From positions 244,710 to 308,709 of the forward strand of contig JAVCCK010000034.1 in NCBI GenBank assembly GCA_030765525.1: a DNA stretch of 64,000 nucleotides, read 5' to 3'. A program made the translations under genes and the position numbers. Source of the DNA: Candidatus Lernaella stagnicola. Its GTDB lineage: Bacteria > Lernaellota > Lernaellaia > Lernaellales > Lernaellaceae. This document shows, in pieces, positions 1,729 to 46,877 of this stretch (position 1 is the first letter of the stretch; each line of letters starts with the position of its first letter). Below the pieces are notes generated by a model that saw nothing but the letters and a program-made list of their open reading frames with translations, made no database searches and was not told where the DNA came from.

Positions 1729-3430
1729 GCCAACCGGGGAAGAATCGACGGAACCACAACTCGAGACACGCCTTCGTGTAACGGCTGCGATCGAATTCGC
1801 CTCGGGGCGTCGGCGGCGGGATGTCCAAGCCGCGGCTTTCCAGCGACCCGATCAGTTCGTTCGCCCACGTCTTGAGCGGACCGTTCAGCCACCGGTCGAT
1901 GGGTACGACGAGACCTTTTTTGTCCTTGCGGTTGACGATGGAGTCCGGCACCCAACGCGTTGCGGCGCGCCGCAGGATGACCTTGGTTGTCAGGTCGTGG
2001 ATTTTAAGGTGCGGCGGCAGGCGGAACGCGAATTCGACAATGCGATGATCGAGGAAGGGGCAACGATTCTCCAGGCCGAACGCGGCCGCGGCGCGGTCGT
2101 TCATCTGGATCAGGCTCGGCAGCGAGATGTGCAGGTCTGTCAAGCCGAGGCAGTCCGGCAGGCTGCGGCCCGCCTGGAAGAAAGCGCGAATGCGGTCAAT
2201 GTGCGCGGTCGGGTCGGCGACCTGCGCGCGATGAATCAAGTGGAAATAGCGGCCGACCACGTCACCGAACATGTCGTGCCGCCAAAAGAAACGGGCCAGG
2301 GGATGGTACGCTTTGAGTTCGGTGCGGCGGCCCAGTTCGTGCTCGACTTGCATCAGCAAGTAACGCACGTACCCGGCGAATATTTCATCGGCGCCTTGGC
2401 CGCCCAACACGACCGTCACGTGGTTCGCCGCGGTGCGTGCCAGCGCGAACTCGCTGATCGTCGAGGCCGTGGCGATCGGCTGGTCCAGGTGCCAGATGAT
2501 GTTTTCAAGTTCCGTCTGCAAATCTTCGGGTTTGGGCGTGACGACGTGCTGCGCGGCGCCAATGTGGTCCGCCATCGTCTTCGCGTGCTCGAACTCGTCG
2601 AATGCTACGCCAAGAGGAAAGCGACAACTGAAAACCTGGCTCGGGCGCGCCACCGCCGCCATGATGCTGGAATCCAAGCCGCCGGATAGAAACAACCCCA
2701 CCGGCACGTCGGCGACCATGCGAATGCGAACGGCATCCTCGATTAATGCGGCGAGTTCTTCCACCAGTTCGTCGTCACTCCGGTCGTCGTCGCCGTCGGG
2801 GCGCGGCGATTCCCAATAGCTCTCGATCGTCACTTCATGACCGTCGTAGGTCAGCGTGCGCCCGTGGCCCAATTCGCACACGCCCTCGAAAATCGTGTCG
2901 GGGGCAAGCGGAGCGTCAAACACCCAGAATGCCTCCGTGATGCGCGGCGCCGATTCGATTTGGGTCAGCAGCGCTTTGATTTCGCTGGCGACGTAAAAAC
3001 CGTGTTCGTTATGGGCCCAGTAGAACGGCTTTTCACCGAGGCGGTCGCGGGCGCAGAAAAAACGCTCGCCGTCGTAAATCACAAAGGCGAATTGTCCATT
3101 GAAGCGCGTGACGCAGTCTTTGCCCCATTTGCGGTAGGCGTTGAGAATGACCTCGGTGTCGGTTTGGGTTCGAAACTCGTATTCACTCTCCAGTTCGGCG
3201 CGCAGCTCCTTGTAATTGAATACTTCGCCGTTGTAGACGATGACGAATTTGCCGTCCGGACTCTGAATCGGCTGCGTACCGGTGACCAGGTCGATAACTT
3301 TCAGCCGCCGGCTGCCCAGTTGCACGGGGCCGTCGCGATAGAATCCCTCTTCATCGGGGCCACGGTGCGCGAGCATCCGCGTCATCGGCTCGATGTCGCC
3401 TCGTCCCCATATCGCTGCGATGCCGCACAT
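1721..3430 (-). CDS. asnB: asparagine synthetase (glutamine-hydrolysing)-like amidotransferase
   Basis: Mature N-terminus MCGIAAIWG with Cys2 nucleophile (class II GATase), plus the synthetase PP-loop LFLSGGLDSS. The start at 3430 forms an ATGA overlap with the upstream GT2 stop. The longer ORF extension to 3736 is rejected. Confidence 0.85.
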   Translation of the reverse strand: MCGIAAIWGRGDIEPMTRMLAHRGPDEEGFYRDGPVQLGSRRLKVIDLVTGTQPIQSPDGKFVIVYNGEVFNYKELRAELESEYEFRTQTDTEVILNAYRKWGKDCVTRFNGQFAFVIYDGERFFCARDRLGEKPFYWAHNEHGFYVASEIKALLTQIESAPRITEAFWVFDAPLAPDTIFEGVCELGHGRTLTYDGHEVTIESYWESPRPDGDDDRSDDELVEELAALIEDAVRIRMVADVPVGLFLSGGLDSSIMAAVARPSQVFSCRFPLGVAFDEFEHAKTMADHIGAAQHVVTPKPEDLQTELENIIWHLDQPIATASTISEFALARTAANHVTVVLGGQGADEIFAGYVRYLLMQVEHELGRRTELKAYHPLARFFWRHDMFGDVVGRYFHLIHRAQVADPTAHIDRIRAFFQAGRSLPDCLGLTDLHISLPSLIQMNDRAAAAFGLENRCPFLDHRIVEFAFRLPPHLKIHDLTTKVILRRAATRWVPDSIVNRKDKKGLVVPIDRWLNGPLKTWANELIGSLESRGLDIPPPTPRGEFDRSRYTKACLELWFRRFFPGWHA

Positions 3431-11900: not shown

Positions 11901-14900
11901 CGGCCTGTGGGCGTTGGCGGGGCTCGCGCAATTCCATCTCGAACAGAATCGCACGACTGAAGCCGCGGCCGCCTACCGGCGCATGCTGGAAGATCCGGCG
12001 GCGAAAAAGCACCCAGAGGAAGCCATGCGCGCCCGCCAGGGATTGGGGATGATTGCGGAAACGGCGCGCGATCATGACGGCGCCGTCACCGAATACCGCA
12101 AAGCGCTCGACCTCGCCGAATCCGACGACGACAAAATCGGCATCGAGCAAGCCATCGTGCGCGCCTTGGCCGAGCAGGGCAACGTGGACGAAGCCGAAGC
12201 CCTCATCACCCAAATGAAGCAGCGCGACTCCCAGCAAGTCGGGATGATCGAAGCTGCGCAAATGAACATTCTGGGCGCTCTGGCGCGGGATGGGCGTATT
12301 GAGGAAGCCCTCACCGGATACGAGCGCATTGCCGCAGAAACGGACGATGATAACAACAAGGCCGCCGCGCTCAATTCCATCGCGCAAATCCAACTGAGCC
12401 GGGGACGGCTGCGCGAGGCCGAAACCGCGTACGGTCGCTTACGGCGTGAGTTCGCCGACGACCCCCTGCAACTGCGCGCAGCGGACCTCGGTCTGGCCGG
12501 TCTTTTCCGGCAGCGCGGCGATTTCAAACGGGCGCTTACCGCTTACCGGAAAGTCGTTGATCGCTACGATGACTCGGCGACTCGGCGTCAGGGCTTGGCG
12601 GCCATCGCCGGTCTCTACGCCGAAATGGGCGAGTTGGACAAGGCTCGCGAAACCTATCAGGCGTTGTTGGACAATGCGGGCGAATCGGCCTCGGCCCAGG
12701 CTACGGCGATGATGGGCTTGGCGGACTTGCAGGCGCGGGGCGGCGAGGTCGACAAGGCCATGGAGGGCTACCGGCAGGTGCTGGATCTCGCGGTCGAAGA
12801 TACGCTGAAAATCGGCGCGTATCATGCGCTGGCGCAGCTCTACATGCAGCAGGGGCTTTTCACCCAGGCGCGGGAGATCTACGAGGAACTGGGTCAACGA
12901 TTCCCGCAAAACGCCGAGCATCTCGTCGCGGCGCGTTTCGGCGAGGCCGAGACTTTGCGTCAAAACGGCCAGTACGAAAAGGCGGCGGCGATCTACAACG
13001 AATTGCGCGACGGTTCGGCCAACCCGGCCGTTAAGACACGGGCTCGCATATCCATCGGCCGCGCTTATCTCGACCAACAGAAATTTGCCGAGGCCCGGCA
13101 GGCTTTCGCGGAAGTCGTCGAGGACAATCTCGCTCCGGCGCTGCAAAAACTCGAAGCCCGCACCGCCTTGGCGGACCTGTTGCGTCGAGCGGGCGAGATG
13201 GACGCAGCGGCCGACGCCTACGAAAAAATCGTCGCGGAAACCAGTGACGAAAACGTCAAGCAAGGTGCGAGGCAGGCCATCGCCGGCATTCGCCTGGAAC
13301 AAAACCGTCTGGACGAGGCCGAGAAAATATTCCGCGCGATGTCCAAAGCGCCGGGCGGCGCGGCACGTACCGCCGGCGGAATGATGGGGCTGGCCGATGT
13401 CGCGATGCGACGGGGCGAATATGAAAAGGCGCGCGGTTTCTATCGGCGGGTTCGGCAGGCGGCGGTTGACGTCCAAAGCGATTTGAACGCGTTGACGGCC
13501 ATCGCGCAGTCTTACACGGCCGAGAAGAAATTCGCGCGGGCCGAAGCCGCGTACGACGAGATTCTGGAAAAACACGGCAGCAACGCCCAGGCCAAGATCG
13601 ACGCACAACTCGCCAAAGCGAACCTCTTGCGGGATCGCGGCGACGTCGAAGAAGCTCTCGGTGCGTACCGGGAAATCGCCGACACATACGGCAACGCCAA
13701 CCAGGTTTATTGGGCATTGTCCGGCATCGCCCAAATCGAAGGACAACGCGGAAGCGTCGACTTGGCGCAACAAGCGTATGACGAAATCGCGCGCCGCTTT
13801 CCCGAAAATGCCGCAGGCCTAGCCGATGCAAAACTGAACCAAGCCAACATGTTCAAGGCCACCGGGCGACGAACCGAAGCCGAAAAAGAGTTCCGGGAAA
13901 TCATCGAAACCTACCCGGGGTCGCGGCAGACCGCGGCGGCCGTCGAGGGCTTGGCGCAGATCGGCATCGAATACCAGGACTACGACCAGGCGCTTCAGAA
14001 TTTCCAGAAGTTGTTGGAGGATTTCAGTTCCGATCCGTCGGTCACCACGCGCGCCCGTCTGGGGCTCGCCAATGTGGCGCGGCAGCAAGGTGAAACCGAT
14101 AAAGCCGTCGCCGAGTTCGAAAAAGTCGCCGGCGAAGCCAAGCGGCCCGACGACCAAGTTCAAGCCCTCGTGTTTCTCGCGCAGACGCTCCAGGAGACCG
14201 GCCGCAATCAGGAAGCCGAGGCGGTGTTCGACCGTCTGATGAACCAGTATTCCGACCGCCCATGGGCGCGATCGGAAGCCAATATGGGTCGTGGCAACCT
14301 CCGAATGACGCAAGGTCGCTTCCAAGAAGCTGCCGATTTGTTCAAGAAAGTCGCCGAAGAGTTCCGCCGGAAGCCGATGGCGGGCGGGGCGTTGCAGGCG
14401 TGGGCGAGCGCCGAGATCGCCGCGGGCAACATCGAGGGCGTCGAAACCATCATCACGCGGATCGAAAACGAACACGGCGACGACCCCAACGCGGCCATCA
14501 ACGTGCACATGAACGTGGCCAATAAGTTGATCGCCGAAAAGCAGTTCGCTGCCGCCGACCAACGTCTCGCGCGCGTGCTGGAACGATACAAGGGATTGCC
14601 GCAAACCGCGTGGGTCAGACACGCGCAGGCTCAAAGTGCGTTGGCGCAGCGACGTTTCGGCCGCGCCACTGAAATCTACCGCGAAATCAAAGAAGAGTTC
14701 AGCGGCAACCTCGTGGCAGTGATCGATGCCGAGCTCGGCGAAGCGGATTTGTTGCACGGCCAGGGGGAAACGGATCGGGCTCTCGAAATCTACGAGCGTG
14801 TCGCCAACCGCTATCGCGATTACAGCCAGGCGGTCCGCGGTCTGCAGGCCATGGCCGACATTTACGGGGAGCGCGGTCGCACCTACGAGCAGGAACAGGC

Positions 14901-27513: not shown

Positions 27514-28692
27514 ATGACCGCCGAGCTCTCGCGCCGGCTGTTTCTTGTTTGCTGTCTCGTTTTGTTGATAGTCGGCTGCGGAGGCGCGGGCGAGGAAACG
27601 AACGATCGGCAAATCGCCGACGACGACTCGGCCGAAGAGGACGGCAATTCCCTTGACGGTCCGGCGGGCGCCGAAATCGACGACGACAATGATGATGATG
27701 ACGATAACGATAACGACAGCTCCCCCGCGGGTTTTCCGAATATCGATTGGGCGGGTCTCGAAAACCCCATCTTGGCGCGGCCCGATCGCATGCTCAAAGA
27801 CCAAGCCGTCGTTTACCACAACGGTTGGTTTCACATTTTCGCCTCGACGCGGTTCGTAAACGGCGACGCGTCGGAAAACATTGCGCGACAACGAATGTAC
27901 AAAACCCGCGACTTTCGCAACTACGAAGAATGGTGGGACGACGACCTCGGCTACGTCGGCTCGCCGGATGTCATCCGCATGGGCGATCGATGGTTCATGG
28001 CGTTCTGGAAACCACTTAATCTCAATTTCGAAGAAATGAGCCGTCTGTACTATTCCACGTCGGAGGATTTGGTCGATTGGTCGAAGGACAAACCGTTGCT
28101 GCCCGGGGTGCAGCCATTCCAGCGGCACACGCACAGCGCCCTGGCGGAAGTCGACGGATATGTCGTGCTTGGCTATAAGCACTGGGAGCAGTTTTCCATA
28201 ACCCGGTCGGTCGAAGCCGCGCTTGACCCTTACGCCTGGCTCGACCCGGTAATCGCTTACCCCGGCGGTTACGAGGATTGGGCCGAGAATTACCAGTTCC
28301 TCAGCATCGACGGTGCGTGGCGCATGATCGCCACCTCCAACGTGACAACCGGCAAATACTCCAGCGGCCGCGAGCCGTTCATCTATCGGGCGCGCAACGG
28401 CGGCGTCGCATTTCCCGACTGGCAGTACTGGGAGGAACGCACGCATCTGGAAGTGCCGTTCGAAGACTGGAATCAAATCCTGCATGCCGATTCGGCGTAT
28501 TTGTGCGACTGGCGCGAATACGACGGCTATTTCTATTTGTTTTACGCCGGCGCTAACGACAGCGCGTCTTTTCAGGGACGCGGGCACGGCAAAATCGGCG
28601 TCGCCCGTTCGGCCGATCTGGTCGAATGGAAACTACCCGGCGTAAACAATGAAGGGCAAACACCGAACCCTGGGTGGGAGGAAGCGTTATGA
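27514..28692 (+). CDS. lipoprotein, 5-bladed beta-propeller glycoside hydrolase-like (GH43-like) with poly-Asp linker
   Basis: GGAGG RBS. Lipobox LIVGC. Acidic linker EIDDDNDDDDDNDNDSS. NPILARPDRM...VVYHNGWFHIFAST resembles the GH43 N-terminal catalytic-Asp block, and later DGAWRMIAT / YLFYAG blades follow. Confidence 0.5.
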   Translation: MTAELSRRLFLVCCLVLLIVGCGGAGEETNDRQIADDDSAEEDGNSLDGPAGAEIDDDNDDDDDNDNDSSPAGFPNIDWAGLENPILARPDRMLKDQAVVYHNGWFHIFASTRFVNGDASENIARQRMYKTRDFRNYEEWWDDDLGYVGSPDVIRMGDRWFMAFWKPLNLNFEEMSRLYYSTSEDLVDWSKDKPLLPGVQPFQRHTHSALAEVDGYVVLGYKHWEQFSITRSVEAALDPYAWLDPVIAYPGGYEDWAENYQFLSIDGAWRMIATSNVTTGKYSSGREPFIYRARNGGVAFPDWQYWEERTHLEVPFEDWNQILHADSAYLCDWREYDGYFYLFYAGANDSASFQGRGHGKIGVARSADLVEWKLPGVNNEGQTPNPGWEEAL

Positions 28693-29063
28693 AAAAATAT
28701 TTGTTGTTAGCGTTCGCGCTGGCGCTGGTGATCACGGCGGTCTGGGCGGCTGATGTGCCGGAGACGGTCGACCTCTCGCCGTACGTGAAAGTGACGGTCG
28801 TTTCGAAGTTCGACCACAAACAGCACGTTGAAACCGGCCAACTCGAATGCACGAAATGCCACCACAAGTGGGGCGGCGGCGAAGAGGAAGCGGTACAGAA
28901 ATGCAGTGCCTGCCACAAGGAAGAGGACGGCGAGACCTCTTCGGCCAAAACCGCGTTCCATAAAATGTGCAAGGATTGCCACAAGGAACAAAAGGAGCAG
29001 GGCAAGACGCCGCCCGTCACGTGCAGCCAATGCCACGTGAAGAAGCTGGACGAGCCCGCCTAG
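28689..29063 (+). CDS. tetraheme cytochrome c3 (class III)
   Basis: Signal peptide MKKYLLLAFALALVITAVWA. Four CxxCH motifs (CTKCH, CSACH, CKDCH, CSQCH) plus at least 5 extra His for bis-His ligation in about 105 mature residues. ATGA overlap with the upstream propeller lipoprotein. Confidence 0.85.
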   Translation: MKKYLLLAFALALVITAVWAADVPETVDLSPYVKVTVVSKFDHKQHVETGQLECTKCHHKWGGGEEEAVQKCSACHKEEDGETSSAKTAFHKMCKDCHKEQKEQGKTPPVTCSQCHVKKLDEPA

Positions 29064-31144
29064 TTTTTCGGGAGCGCGCGAATCGCGGCCACGATGTCGT
29101 CCAGCGCGCCGACGCGTGCGAAAACTGCCGGTTGGCCGACGAGCGCCGCCGCCCGCGTCACTTGGCGGCCGCTAAATGTTTCGCCGGTGAACACGTTTTC
29201 CCATTGTCCGTCGGGGAAGTAGACGGTGACTTCCTTGACGCCTTTTTCCACGACCGGTGCAAACACCATGTCCTCGCCGATCATCCACTGCCGGTGTGCT
29301 GAGTAGGCTGGTTCCCAATCGGGATCGACCAGCGCCGTGTGGCGAACAATCGGCAGCCCCGTCGCCTGCGCCTCTTCCGCCAGTTCCCTGAAATAGGGAA
29401 ACATGGCCGCGTGAATTTTGCCGAATCGCGCGAACATGGCCAGGGTATCGGCGGCGGAATCGAACTGGTGATTTTCGAGTTTCTGCAAGCCATCATGATT
29501 GCGCATCACGGGCGTGAAGGCTCCCAGTTCCGTCCAACGCCAGAAGAGTTCCTTTTCGCGCGGGCCGCCCGAAAAACCGCCGATGTCGTGCGAGAAGAAG
29601 GGAATGCCCGCCAACCCGAGGGTCAACCCGGCGGCAATCACCGTCGGGAAACCGTCGGCCTCGTCCCAGGTGGCCTCCTGGTCGCCCGCCCACACGATCT
29701 GCGCCGTCTGGTGGTCGCCGGTGTAGCCGCTACGGGTGAATATCGCGAAGTCGCCGTCCGGATAGGCCTGCTCGAGCACCTCGCGATTGATGCGGTGCCA
29801 TTGGCTGGGATAGCGGTTGTGATACCACGCCGCGTCGCCCTCGTGCAGCGCCGCGTTGTAGGGCAGCCACTCGCCGAAATCGCACATCCAACCCTTCATA
29901 CCCAGGTCCACCGCGCGCCGGGCGTAATGCTTGAAGTACGCCACCGCACCGGGATCGGTCAGGTCGACGAGCGTTCCGACAAACGTGCTGATGGGAAACA
30001 GGTAGGGATCGCCGCGAGGGGTTTCGATCAGGTAACCGCGCTCCCGCATTTCGTTGTAGTGCTCGTAGGCCGGGGCGACAAATGGATTGAAGTAGCCCAA
30101 GAAGCGCACGCCTTCTTCGGCCAGCGCGTCGATGAATCCCGGCAAGAACGGATACAACTCTTCGTCGTGAATCCACCGGTACTTCACACCGTAGTTGCCC
30201 AAACCGAAATTCCGAATGCCCAGCCAATCCTGCGCCCACACCGCGGTGACCGGCACGCCCGCGTCCAGCGCGTTGCGCACCCGCTGCGCGACAAGTTCCG
30301 TGCCGCCCTGCGCGGCGATCCAGACGCCCTCGAAGGCCCAATCGGGAGGCAACGTTTTAGGGCGTCCGACCTCTTGGGTCAGTTGGCCGATGACGTCGTA
30401 GCCCGTCGGTCCCGGAAACAGAAGAATGCTTGCGCCGCGGCCATTCCACACTTCCAGCGTCCATTCCTGCGGCGTGGCGGAACCTAGGTCGAAGCGCGAG
30501 AACTCGCTGTTTTCTAGCAGTAAGCCCTTGCCGGCCTCCGGGTCGAGGAAGTAGGGCATTGGGAAATAGGTTTCGAGCTTGCTGCCGAAGGGGGGCAGCG
30601 CCGGATAGGCCAGCCGGCCCAAGCCCTGCTCGGCGACCCATATCGGCACCCGCTTGCCGCGCATTTCGATGAAATTGTATTGCTCGCCGAAGCCCCAAAA
30701 TCGGGCACCGTCCTCGAGGCGAAAGCGCAGTTTCAGCCCGTCATAACCGGCTTGCTCAACGGCCACGCGCATGCGCAGATTGTCGCCCGCGGCGTGTTCG
30801 AAGATGATAGCTCCGACGATTTCGCCGCCCGCCGTGATATAGGGGCGTCCGTCACGCAGGCTGATTTGAAAGTGACTCGCCTTCTCGTTTTTGGTCTGAA
30901 AGCGAAACTGGCCGAACAGCATCGGCACCTGCACGTCGAAGGTGAGGGCGTCGACGCCGGTAACGGCTTGCATGAGGCGCTCGCCGTACCAGATTTCCAG
31001 GGCGCCGTCGTCGCCTGCCAGCCAATGCCAGCCGGGCGGATGAACGAAGGCGGAGGAATTGTCGTCGTCATCATCGTCGCCGGCGCACGACGCCAGCGCG
31101 ACAGTCACCAACAAAAGAGCGAGTAAGAAAACGTATTTGCGCAT
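29060..31144 (-). CDS. glycoside hydrolase family 31 (alpha-glucosidase/alpha-xylosidase-like) lipoprotein
   Basis: Lipobox ALASC followed by GDDDDDDNSS. GH31 catalytic region GWMCDFGE, plus conserved WAGD, HDIGGF and RNH blocks. Confidence 0.85.
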   Translation of the reverse strand: MRKYVFLLALLLVTVALASCAGDDDDDDNSSAFVHPPGWHWLAGDDGALEIWYGERLMQAVTGVDALTFDVQVPMLFGQFRFQTKNEKASHFQISLRDGRPYITAGGEIVGAIIFEHAAGDNLRMRVAVEQAGYDGLKLRFRLEDGARFWGFGEQYNFIEMRGKRVPIWVAEQGLGRLAYPALPPFGSKLETYFPMPYFLDPEAGKGLLLENSEFSRFDLGSATPQEWTLEVWNGRGASILLFPGPTGYDVIGQLTQEVGRPKTLPPDWAFEGVWIAAQGGTELVAQRVRNALDAGVPVTAVWAQDWLGIRNFGLGNYGVKYRWIHDEELYPFLPGFIDALAEEGVRFLGYFNPFVAPAYEHYNEMRERGYLIETPRGDPYLFPISTFVGTLVDLTDPGAVAYFKHYARRAVDLGMKGWMCDFGEWLPYNAALHEGDAAWYHNRYPSQWHRINREVLEQAYPDGDFAIFTRSGYTGDHQTAQIVWAGDQEATWDEADGFPTVIAAGLTLGLAGIPFFSHDIGGFSGGPREKELFWRWTELGAFTPVMRNHDGLQKLENHQFDSAADTLAMFARFGKIHAAMFPYFRELAEEAQATGLPIVRHTALVDPDWEPAYSAHRQWMIGEDMVFAPVVEKGVKEVTVYFPDGQWENVFTGETFSGRQVTRAAALVGQPAVFARVGALDDIVAAIRALPKN

Positions 31145-34707: not shown

Positions 34708-35394
34708 TCACAGCGGGGTTAATGTGACGTCGAAGCTCGTCGCCAATTCGATTTCCAGATCCGGCTCCATGTCCAGTTCGACACCGTGAGTCGGCACGGC
34801 CAGACGCAGGCAGAATGCGAACGGCGAGGTGAAGTCGAGCAACTGATCCTCCAATTCGCTTTCGCCGCCGCTGAGGAAGGTTGCGTCGGTCCACGAGTTC
34901 ACGTTCGTGCCCGCCGGGATTTCGATGCGCGCAATGCGTTTATCGTTCGGCAACTTTGTCGGGTCGACGAGCACGAAATCGAGGCTGGACAGATCGATAT
35001 CCACGCCGTCGGGCGGAACGAGCGGCGAGGGCACAGACGAAAGCAGGAAGATATCAAGATTGCCACCCTCGGCAACACGATTTTTCCCAATCTTGTAGGT
35101 CATGTCCTTGATTTCGATATCATCGATGTGACTTTTGGCGGAATTCCACAGGTCGGCGTAATCCGTGGCCGACATGAGGGTGTTGATCGTTACGGTCTCC
35201 GAATAGCACACGGCCGTCAGTTTGTAGCCGGCCTGCTCGATGGCGTACATCGGTACCGGCTCGTCGGTAATATCCAAGTCGAAGCTTTCGGTTTGGCCCA
35301 CAGCGTCGTTGATTTCATCTTCGAGTTTTTCGCACGCCGCGAAAATCAGGCTCAAAGCCGCCAGGGCGAAAACGGCAATCATTAATTTGCGCAT
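34708..35394 (-). CDS. hypothetical lipoprotein with acidic N-terminal region
   Basis: Lipobox IFAAC followed by EKLEDEINDA. Confidence 0.5.
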   Translation of the reverse strand: MRKLMIAVFALAALSLIFAACEKLEDEINDAVGQTESFDLDITDEPVPMYAIEQAGYKLTAVCYSETVTINTLMSATDYADLWNSAKSHIDDIEIKDMTYKIGKNRVAEGGNLDIFLLSSVPSPLVPPDGVDIDLSSLDFVLVDPTKLPNDKRIARIEIPAGTNVNSWTDATFLSGGESELEDQLLDFTSPFAFCLRLAVPTHGVELDMEPDLEIELATSFDVTLTPL

Positions 35395-45605: not shown

Positions 45606-46877
45606 ATGGAGACGGCCGTGAAACCTTCAATGTGGATTGTATGTTGCGCGATGGCCTCGGCCCTTTTTTTGATCCTGCCCGCGTGCAGTGACAACGAAAC
45701 CGAAACCGAATGCGACGATTGCCCGCCGGTCGACGACGACGATAACAACGACGACGACGATGACGCCACGCCCGCGCCGATCATCGGCCCGCCGACCCGC
45801 GTCGTACCCTCGAGCGGTTTGCCGCCGGACTTGGCCTTGCAGGACGCCAACAACAACCTGGATGTCACCCGTCACGACGACCGCGTCTTCCTGGCCTTTC
45901 GCACCGCACCCAGTCACTTTGCCGCTGAAACGGCGGAAATCCACGTTGTCTCCAGCCTCGACCAAGTCCATTGGGACCACGAGATGTCATTCCACCTCGG
46001 ACGCGACCTACGTGAACCCCGCCTGCTCTCGTGGGACGGCGGCCTGTTTCTCTATTTCGCTTTCCTCGGCACGAATCCGATCAACTTTGAGCCCGGCGGC
46101 ATGATGGTCGCCGAATACCTCGGACCTGGCGACTGGACCGAACCCGCCGAATTCTACGGCCAAGGTTTCATCCCTTGGCGCACCAAGACCATCGACGGCG
46201 TGCCGTACATGTTGACGTACGTGGGAGGCGAGAGCGTTTACAGCATCGACCCCGAACCCATCGACGTACACTTTCTGACCACCGCCGACGGCTACACGTG
46301 GGTTCCGGTCGTGCCGGGACAGCCGGTCGTCATCGAAGGCGGCTGCACCGAAACCGATGTCGTCTTTCTCGACAACGGCGACTTGGTGGCGGTCAGCCGC
46401 TGCGAAGCCCGCGACACGTTGGGCTTCGGTATGCGCATTTGCCGCGCTCCCGCGGAGGATCTCGGCCGGTGGGAGTGCGTCATGGATCCTAAGAAGTACG
46501 ACTCGCCGCTGCTGTTCCGCGAGGGCGACGACATTTACCTGATTGGTCGGCGCAACCTGACGGCGGACGGCAATTACAACCTGGGTTACGACACGCTTCC
46601 GGACTTGTTGCAGTATCTGATCTACGAACTCGATTATTGGATTGCGCCCAAACGCACGTCCCTTTGGCGTGTGAACCCCGAGACGCTGACGGTCTCTTTC
46701 GTGGACGATTTCCCGTCCCGCGGCGACACGTCATTTGCGGGAATTATTGGGGAGGGCGAACACGCCTACGAGGTGTACAATTACACATCACCGCTTCAGG
46801 AGCCGGATTACGTGTGGTTGATGGGGCAGTTGGGTAAAACGGTCATCGTGCGCGTCACGCTGACGTTTCCACAATGA
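45606..46877 (+). CDS. lipoprotein, beta-propeller glycosidase-like, with poly-Asp linker
   Basis: Lipobox LILPAC, then SDNETETECDDCPPVDDDDNNDDDDDA. Domain layout parallels the 27514 lipoprotein (NNNLDVTRHDDRVFLAFRTA block). Confidence 0.5.
   Translation: METAVKPSMWIVCCAMASALFLILPACSDNETETECDDCPPVDDDDNNDDDDDATPAPIIGPPTRVVPSSGLPPDLALQDANNNLDVTRHDDRVFLAFRTAPSHFAAETAEIHVVSSLDQVHWDHEMSFHLGRDLREPRLLSWDGGLFLYFAFLGTNPINFEPGGMMVAEYLGPGDWTEPAEFYGQGFIPWRTKTIDGVPYMLTYVGGESVYSIDPEPIDVHFLTTADGYTWVPVVPGQPVVIEGGCTETDVVFLDNGDLVAVSRCEARDTLGFGMRICRAPAEDLGRWECVMDPKKYDSPLLFREGDDIYLIGRRNLTADGNYNLGYDTLPDLLQYLIYELDYWIAPKRTSLWRVNPETLTVSFVDDFPSRGDTSFAGIIGEGEHAYEVYNYTSPLQEPDYVWLMGQLGKTVIVRVTLTFPQ

Follow-up and report, generated by a model that had tools for sequence, protein, structure and literature searches.

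Poly-aspartate tracts behind the lipobox of three predicted lipoproteins of Candidatus Lernaella stagnicola, probably an acidic variant of a disordered tether

The 64 kb stretch of DNA considered here (the window; 61% G+C) belongs to Candidatus Lernaella stagnicola, three of its proteins (among them the GH31 protein described below) being 100% identical to NCBI entries of this organism. This uncultured bacterium from Ace Lake, Antarctica, is predicted to be saccharolytic and proteolytic and is placed in the phylum Lernaellota, previously FEN-1099 (PMC9324843). Three genes of the window encode predicted lipoproteins that carry poly-Asp/Asn (poly-D) tracts behind the lipobox Cys, in the open reading frames (ORFs) at 27514, 31144-29060 and 45606, where an earlier note on this DNA had placed them; we refer to their products as the GH43-like, the GH31 and the propeller lipoprotein, respectively (Table 1). 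All lipoprotein assignments below are predictions made with our own screen for a signal peptide and lipobox, which combines a regular expression with hydrophobicity and looks for a basic n-region, a hydrophobic h-region and then [LVI][ASTVI][GAS]-C. The three tract proteins fit this pattern (LIVGC, LASC and LPAC, each preceded by a hydrophobic core and Arg/Lys). The earlier note had suggested that the tracts are an export tag dedicated to glycosidases, which is not upheld by our analysis; they are most likely an unusual acidic form of an ordinary kind of element, widespread across bacteria, the tether that separates a lipoprotein domain from its anchor.

The GH31 lipoprotein reads Cys20-A-G-D6-NSS, with its first Asp at +4 (counting the Cys as +1), and Pfam recognises in it both the TIM-barrel catalytic domain (PF01055, E 8.6e-51) and the C-terminal beta-sandwich (PF21365, E 1.9e-14) expected of a GH31 enzyme, which it is predicted to be. 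In the GH43-like lipoprotein, Cys22 is followed by a stretch that begins C-G-G-A-G-E-E, so that the first acidic residue is at +6, and the poly-D run comes only from +35, as E54-I-DDDNDDDDDNDND-SS, its core DDDNDDDDDNDND being residues 56-68. This protein has no match of its own in Pfam or NCBIfam, and a search of the single sequence against the PDB gave nothing useful; many of its homologues, however, have precomputed PF04616 matches, and a profile of the family matches structures of the five-bladed-propeller families GH130, GH32, GH43, GH62 and GH159 (E 2e-8 to 1e-3). Its mature domain is predicted to belong to the five-bladed beta-propeller glycosidase/phosphorylase superfamily (GH43/GH32/GH130-like), with no single family assigned. 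The propeller lipoprotein begins its mature part with C-S-D-N-E-T-E and reads Cys27-SDNETETECDDCPPV-DDDDNNDDDDD-A, the Asp run beginning 16 residues past the Cys. Searches of Pfam, NCBIfam and PDB sequences gave no match for it. An AlphaFold2 model, made for this protein only among the three, has a mean pLDDT of 92.8 (>95 in the propeller), and Foldseek against the PDB places an uncharacterised Dyadobacter protein, Dfer_1899, at the top and sialidases next (E 1e-10, TM 0.5-0.6, ~11% identity), which makes it sialidase-like at the level of the predicted fold only. The label 'carbohydrate-active' given to all three in the earlier note is therefore sound for the GH31 lipoprotein by Pfam, rests on a family profile matching propeller glycoside hydrolase structures for the GH43-like one, and on fold only for the third. 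Likewise, the statement that the tracts come immediately after the Cys is accurate for the GH31 lipoprotein but not for the propeller and GH43-like ones, where they start 16 and 34 residues on, although both of these linkers are acidic throughout.

Table 1. Coordinates of the poly-D lipoproteins of the window, of a neighbouring acidic lipoprotein and of C-terminal poly-D proteins in related assemblies
Feature	Position	Strand	Basis or remark
GH43-like predicted lipoprotein gene, 392 aa	27514..28692	+	Translation; lipobox LIVGC by regular-expression screen
Signal peptide and lipobox of GH43-like protein	27514..27579	+	Cys22 codon = 27577-27579
Acidic linker of GH43-like protein, residues 23-74 (~51 residues)	27580..27735	+	Poly-Asp/Asn core D56-D68 = 27679-27717
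GH31 predicted lipoprotein gene, 694 aa (alpha-glucosidase or sulfoquinovosidase family)	29060..31144	-	Pfam
Lipobox Cys20 (31085-31087) and 18-residue linker AGDDDDDDNSSAFVHPPG	31031..31087	-	Asp6 run = 31061-31078; linker boundary from orthologue comparison
Predicted lipoprotein, 228 aa, with moderately acidic N-terminus; outside the phenomenon	34708..35394	-	Gap-free alignment to L124 orthologue
Propeller predicted lipoprotein gene, 423 aa, >1000 homologues	45606..46877	+	Translation; sialidase-like beta-propeller fold by model
Lipobox Cys27 (45684-45686) and linker of ~38 residues SDNETETECDDCPPVDDDDNNDDDDDATPAPIIGPPTR	45684..45800	+	Poly-Asp/Asn core = 45732-45764
Subtilisin-like protease with NCBIfam choice-of-anchor J domain, ...D60+...EGGCCG*	L129 15221-17968	+	
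C-terminal poly-D protein ending ...GGSCCG*	L131 13999-15741	+	
C-terminal poly-D protein ending ...GACCG*	L131 378-944	-	
C-terminal poly-D protein ending ...NACGC*	L130 3722-4810	+	
C-terminal poly-D protein ending ...GGCGC*	L091 ORF ending at 1464	-	

The three tracts are real and non-random, and the earlier note described them for the most part correctly. On both strands of the 64 kb, (GAY)5 occurs at the three tract sites only, against a mean of 0.05 matches in shuffled sequence (none of 100 shuffles reached four), and a six-frame scan for 10-residue windows with at least six Asp returns, apart from the same tracts, a single weak stretch at an internal position near 2768-2800. The latter (PDGDDDRSDDELVEE, 2768-2800, minus strand) lies inside a 684-residue ORF and has no signal peptide nearby. 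All three tracts are found behind a lipobox and no more than 50 residues from the predicted lipobox Cys, which bears out the earlier claim that they are tied to lipoprotein N-termini; since the window encodes eight predicted lipoproteins, whose first 50 residues after the Cys make up ~2% of coding positions, the chance of all three falling there is, by our own arithmetic, ~1e-5. With 18 (GH31), ~38 (propeller) and ~51 (GH43-like) residues, the linkers exceed the ~12 residues used as a criterion for a disordered lipoprotein linker. A fourth lipoprotein reported to have an acidic stretch (at 34708) drops out of the set, as it contains no low-complexity tract and aligns without gaps, from its Cys onward, to a 54%-identical orthologue in L124, a related 675-kb metagenome contig. 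General acidity of the proteome of the halophile type was rejected as an explanation, the tracts being local and the related metagenome-assembled genomes (MAGs) apparently coming from varied habitats.

Comparison with orthologues places the tracts outside the folded domains. In all three families homology starts past the tract, at W-x-W (GH31), F/I-D-W..L.NPIL (GH43-like) and VVPS.GLP (propeller family, whose conserved domain begins at this VVPS), with query coverage of ~77%, 94% and 86%; the first of these figures is that of the GH43-like protein, whose homologues align from F74-P-N-I-D-W onward only. Most members of the three families are lipoproteins with a linker. Asp runs are present in 9 of 28 lipoproteins of the GH31 family (linkers of 18-32 residues with runs, median 21 without) and in 19 of 83 of the propeller family (26-47 residues with runs, median 36 without), which suggests that linker length is, roughly, a family property. 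The runs themselves are confined to the closest orthologues, from uncultured MAGs, one of them labelled FEN-1099; more distant orthologues have non-acidic linkers of similar length in their place, and the GH31 orthologue of the sister genus Ca. Alcyoniella australis (P0015) has no Asp run. Absence from orthologues was what the earlier note itself had named as speaking for mere low-complexity linkers, and this is the situation beyond close relatives. Even among these, the GH31 tract varies freely, from AGDDDDDDNSS in the window to GGDDDDDDNNDDG at 65% identity and to ~60 D-rich residues in P0042. Across window and relatives, tracts of 5 to >60 residues lie at offsets of 0 to >30 residues from the Cys, which does not support a position-specific sorting motif. 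In the model of the propeller lipoprotein, linker residues ~31-50 have a block-mean pLDDT of 58, and the flanking block 21-30 one of 68. Because homology starts after the tract, linker pLDDT is low and the sequence turns over among orthologues, the tract is probably a fast-evolving, disordered segment outside the folded domain.

Such turnover raises the question of what happens at the DNA level, where the earlier note had described the (GAY)n tracts as potentially slippage-prone and length-variable. The corresponding explanation, that they are contingency repeats, with slippage during replication occurring often enough to create populations of mixed linker length, draws on the wide differences in tract length between orthologues and on the triplet periodicity of the DNA. 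However, GAC and GAT codons (with AAC and AAT) are intermixed in the tracts, the longest perfect triplet repeats have three to four units (9-12 nt), and CCG repeats elsewhere in the window are as long or longer. In addition, when the metagenome search with the GH31 protein was repeated without the N-terminus it found three loci, two of which are short identical contigs of Ace Lake type, and over 2497 bp that include the GH31 tract there is 100% identity to an independently assembled contig of another metagenome, Ga0222680, which represents one extra assembly and one tract. The long perfect repeats and population length polymorphism of known contingency loci are thus not seen here, and any change would be in frame and hence incapable of on/off switching, all of which makes this explanation extremely improbable. 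What is retained of the claim is that length changes quickly between orthologues: change over evolutionary time is clear, while rapid slippage is not indicated by the sequences compared, that is, by this single additional assembly and tract.

The arrangement itself is by no means peculiar to this lineage. A scan for Cys-x-x-Asp6, as TGY-N6-(GAY)6, in one genome per bacterial and archaeal species, a broad sample in which counts are lower bounds, gave at least 125 matches, 55 (44%) of those listed being directly behind a signal peptide and lipobox. Among the matches listed, the hosts are by record title Chloroflexota (often with twin-arginine-type signals), Bacteroidota, Myxococcota, Proteobacteria, Actinobacteria, Spirochaetes, Firmicutes and a FEN-1099 MAG, and several MAGs were matched two or three times each. 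Pfam searches of 36 complete examples identified SBP_bac_5 (five times), Peripla_BP_6 and 5'-nucleotidase (twice each), PhoX, ferritin-like, SBP_bac_3, M48 peptidase, SCO1, FGE-sulfatase, LamG, fasciclin and alpha/beta-hydrolase domains and a single glycoside hydrolase (GH114). Among the matches listed, post-lipobox poly-D across phyla is mostly on solute-binding proteins and phosphatases. Chloroflexota, Actinobacteria and Firmicutes are conventionally regarded as lacking an outer membrane (OM), i.e. as monoderm. Since the matches span many phyla and Pfam classes, the combination of Cys and poly-Asp is, as far as sequence can tell, widespread, not specific to glycosidases and found in conventionally monoderm lineages too. 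A literature search on poly-Asp lipoprotein linkers returned nothing specific.

Closer to home, we read ~200 kb around orthologues in related assemblies (L124-L133) and, in addition, L043 from a FEN-1099 MAG. The poly-D lipoproteins of these loci include glycosidases (several GH31, GH43-like, GH1 and GH114). In the window, three of three glycosidase-like lipoproteins and none of the five other predicted lipoproteins have the tract. The exclusivity that the earlier note read into this pattern is refuted by the relatives, in which poly-D follows the lipobox of Exo_endo_phos (L127), chlorophyllase/PETase-like (L043), FGE-sulfatase-like (L042), Lcl_C (L038) and c-type cytochrome (L132) proteins, as well as of several further lipoproteins without a Pfam match. 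Lipoproteins of a second kind occur in the same loci, with short linkers rich in Pro/Thr/Ala and without Asp runs (SH3, HEAT-repeat, three methyltransferase-like, VWA, Peptidase_S15, Peptidase_C25 and NMT1 binding proteins). Two linker classes therefore coexist.

Several observations on individual poly-D proteins of the relatives deserve a record. L132 7302-7529 (plus strand) encodes a predicted lipoprotein of 75 residues in which a poly-Asp/Asn linker is combined with a haem-binding CxxCH motif (CLECH); from its sequence, it appears to be a tethered mini c-type cytochrome. In L127 13211-15198 (minus strand), the ORF with lipobox and poly-D (15198-14578) overlaps a called gene in another frame (13211-14716) that is phosphoesterase-like by eye; the frame changes ~400 nt downstream of the tract, owing either to an assembly frameshift or to the presence of two genes. 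In many poly-D lipoproteins of relatives the lipobox Cys is followed, two residues on, by a second Cys (C-G-C-G-Dn, C-S-C-G-Dn, C-E-C-G-Dn), as in L127 1902-3998, 11253-12398 and 15198-14578, L128 2324-432, L071 3169-1814 and the proteins P0256 and P0052, a recurrent pattern that is not present in the three window proteins.

In relatives, long poly-D tracts are also found at the other end of secreted proteins, directly before Cys-containing C-termini (Table 1). In these CCG/CGC-type ends (L129, L131, L130 and L091) the stop codon follows directly and there is no transmembrane helix, unlike in known Cys-containing C-terminal sorting signals, and they may represent an undescribed C-terminal anchor or sorting end; the combination of poly-D with a terminal Cys motif is not present in the window. 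L128 13188-14159 (plus strand), which has no NCBIfam match, has an ordinary signal peptide and ends in poly-D, GSGCSGC, a hydrophobic transmembrane helix and a basic tail. In these genomes poly-D thus adjoins, at either end of a protein, a Cys with an actual or potential role in anchoring, as would be expected of a spacer beside the anchor rather than of a sorting motif at the N-terminus.

Taken together, these findings lead us to view the tracts, with somewhat better than even confidence, as a polyanionic variant of the disordered N-terminal lipoprotein tether, a spacer next to the anchor. Two lines of evidence carry this reading: (i) the tract lies outside the conserved domain, has low model confidence, turns over in length and sequence and is replaced by non-acidic linkers in distant orthologues, and (ii) Cys plus poly-Asp recurs on many kinds of exported proteins in many phyla, and poly-D recurs beside C-terminal Cys motifs. 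The tract would act as a stiff, extended and highly charged spacer that keeps the catalytic domain off the membrane surface, being probably soluble, probably protease-resistant and repelled from anionic membrane surfaces. In-frame insertions and deletions would lengthen or shorten it, its exact sequence being weakly constrained and its length more or less maintained. If it contributes to membrane sorting at all, it would do so through its bulk negative charge and its disorder rather than through a defined motif. The closest known counterparts are the lipoprotein tethers of Escherichia coli (El Rayes et al., bioRxiv 10.1101/2021.01.05.425367), which likewise consist of an unstructured segment between the acylated Cys and the folded domain and likewise vary in sequence while roughly keeping their length within a family; according to that report, about half of E. 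coli OM lipoproteins have a disordered N-terminal linker. Unlike these, poly-D tethers are up to ~50% Asp in runs of five to six, and tracts in relatives exceed 60 residues.

Two points weigh against such a spacer. First, many tracts begin at +2 to +5 from the Cys, where they resemble the consensus SDDDD of the export signal of Bacteroides fragilis (PMC5080379). Second, because linkers without Asp and rich in Pro/Thr/Ala occur in the same loci, poly-D is not simply the default linker composition but marks a hydrolase-rich subset, which a pure spacer model leaves unexplained: it is present in five of five glycosidase-like and in two of 13 other Pfam-annotated lipoproteins of window and relatives (Fisher p ~0.002), in a sample that is small, centred on glycosidase genes and inclusive of the ascertaining window; without the window and index genes, the figures are two of two versus two of 11 (p ~0.08). 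The earlier observation is borne out to the extent that every glycosidase-like lipoprotein found in the lineage carries poly-D, while several non-enzyme lipoproteins have short Pro/Thr/Ala linkers, and enrichment on glycosidases is suggestive, not established.

These two points are what make a lipoprotein export signal (LES) worth weighing. In Bacteroidota, where the consensus is SDDDD in B. fragilis and K-(D/E)2 in Capnocytophaga, an LES suffices to export a periplasmic lipoprotein, requires overall negative charge and depends critically on its position next to the Cys (PMC5080379). Negative charge near the lipidated Cys could similarly direct some lipoproteins, chiefly hydrolases that scavenge nutrients, to the surface or into vesicles, leaving those with neutral linkers in the periplasm. 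The parallel with the Bacteroidota signal (Lauber et al., 2016, PMC5080379; Valguarnera et al., 2018, PMC6222051) extends to acidic residues near the +1 Cys, to the many glycan-degrading enzymes that bear it and to the likeness of SDDDD to the C-S-D..., C-G-D6 and C-A-G-D6 of poly-D proteins: the GH31 lipoprotein reads C-A-G-D6, the propeller one C-S-D-N-E and many relatives C-G-D6 or C-G-G-D6. All glycosidase-like lipoproteins found are in the acidic one of the two linker classes sharing these loci. Moreover, an OM appears in a figure legend of the Lernaellota paper (PMC9324843) and ExbB/ExbD/TonB are encoded at one related locus, which would make sorting across an OM meaningful.

However, an LES comprises three to five residues in a critical position, whereas the tracts occur in another phylum and are far longer (40 to >60 residues in some cases) than a signal needs, and their position and length range as widely as described above. 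The run begins 34 residues past the Cys in the GH43-like lipoprotein, which has no acidic residue before +6, 16 in the propeller one and 15-18 in several orthologues. Judged by the definition of an LES (at least two Asp/Glu at about +3 to +6, with a polar or basic residue before), the propeller lipoprotein fits loosely, the GH31 one has Asp from +4 and the GH43-like one does not fit; nor is the host a member of the Bacteroidota with experimentally surface-exposed lipoproteins, its phylum being Lernaellota. Cys-x-x-D6 is common on Tat-type and other lipoproteins of the conventionally monoderm Chloroflexota, Actinobacteria and Firmicutes, poly-D is found at C-termini too and the tract is not conserved in orthologues, sister genus included. 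We regard an LES-like role as unlikely.

Two further explanations are more doubtful still. The tracts could be neutral low-complexity expansions that unstructured segments tolerate and that a mutational or codon bias of the lineage drives, a notion compatible with rapid turnover without conserved sequence and with the periodic units of DDDxDDD type that recur in relatives and suggest local duplication. Yet tracts are seen only beside an anchor, where they follow the lipobox Cys or precede a terminal Cys motif, and are missing from other disordered regions; the same loci also encode lipoproteins with Pro/Thr/Ala linkers, and Asp codon usage in the tracts is unremarkable, all of which makes neutrality very unlikely. 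Just as improbable, in our opinion, is a module for binding divalent cations or minerals, in which the carboxylates would act as chelators of Ca2+ or Mg2+ or adhere to the surfaces of minerals or particles, and so tether the enzyme to cation-bridged envelope polymers or to particles. Poly-carboxylate chemistry makes cation binding physically plausible. Poly-Asp is a frequent subject of the biomineralisation literature, and the host comes from a saline lake of marine origin (PMC9324843); against this, the tracts contain no structured Ca-binding motif, their length and sequence are unconstrained and the feature also occurs in MAGs with names suggesting gut, wastewater or soil origin.

Other known systems offer partial likenesses to the polyanionic tether. 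In enterobacteria, Asp at +2 mediates Lol avoidance, a single-position rule by which an acidic residue after the lipidated Cys influences localisation. The likeness to poly-D stops at that acidic residue, one system being a single position and the other a tract, and Asp(+2) avoidance of the E. coli type was rejected since the +2 residues are Gly (GH43-like), Ala (GH31) and Ser (propeller). The spacers of PEP-CTERM and MYXO-CTERM proteins (Haft, bioRxiv 10.1101/2023.06.07.544157) are alike in being compositionally biased, presumably extended segments between an anchor or sorting element and a functional domain, and in the L128 13188-14159 protein poly-D even stands as the spacer before a full MYXO-CTERM-type layout of Cys motif, transmembrane helix and basic tail. 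By contrast, anchors in the window are N-terminal (lipobox), and the low-complexity regions of PEP-CTERM proteins are Ser/Thr-rich, not Asp-rich (Haft, bioRxiv 10.1101/2023.06.07.544157).

As for genomic context, the neighbours of the three genes encode Band_7, DUF2804, alpha/beta-hydrolase, GT4 and GT2 glycosyltransferase, M74/LysM peptidase and FHA proteins; since neither SusC/D nor a TonB receptor was found among them, a polysaccharide-utilisation locus was rejected. Positions ~22958-44399 of the window are syntenic with L124, the common order being M74/LysM peptidase, GT2, GT4, alpha/beta-hydrolase, acidic lipoprotein, DUF2804, Band_7, GH31 and SH3 lipoprotein. The two differ between the GH31 and SH3 genes, where a cytochrome c3 gene in L124 stands in the place of the window gene for the GH43-like lipoprotein, a difference that, judging from gene order, points to local gene replacement.

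The propeller family merits a few remarks of its own. It is well conserved (at least 50% identity in the top 120 homologues), with many invariant residues including an NNNLD motif, and its >1000 members are without a Pfam or NCBIfam model and without a relative solved by sequence. With 419 aa, the NCBI copy of the window protein (P0234) is shorter by four residues, and its first residues are K-P-S-M-W, as initiation at 45618 would give; NCBI names put the orthologue, K8I61_09650, near the GH31 gene K8I61_09635, and both records list 14,131 bp as the longest contig. In the otherwise variable linker a CxxC/CxC motif is partly conserved: the window has E35-C-D-D-C-P40 (45708-45725), and the motif reads ECDDCPP, DCNDCPP, DCVECPP, DCDECS and DCNCD in the window and the orthologues P0235, P0238, P0239 and P0240. 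It could be a disulfide or metal site in the tether.

If the tracts are spacers and nothing more, their practical value lies in annotation: they explain why homology to these proteins begins 20-70 residues in, and low-complexity segments of this kind are best masked in searches. A metagenome scan with the full GH31 protein, which had GDDDDDDN among its six peptide patterns, gave 600 stretches, none encoding a relative, and we suspect that this pattern accounts for most of them.

In conclusion, poly-D is a signature by which anchored exoenzymes of Lernaellota-like MAGs can be recognised, and a disordered, polyanionic tether is the account of it that we favour. A bolder proposal, which we consider quite unlikely at present, is that in Lernaellota and allied uncultured lineages negative charge beside the anchoring Cys, whether in a lipobox or in a C-terminal Cys-Cys-Gly/Cys-Gly-Cys, is a localisation code that directs a subset of exported enzymes to the surface. 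If true, LES-type sorting would exist beyond the Bacteroidota, perhaps together with a C-terminal Cys anchor of a kind not described before. If the acidic class were to predict surface display, the extracellular hydrolases of an uncultured, polymer-degrading phylum could be recognised from sequence alone, and the principle of the Bacteroidota export signal would reach another phylum.

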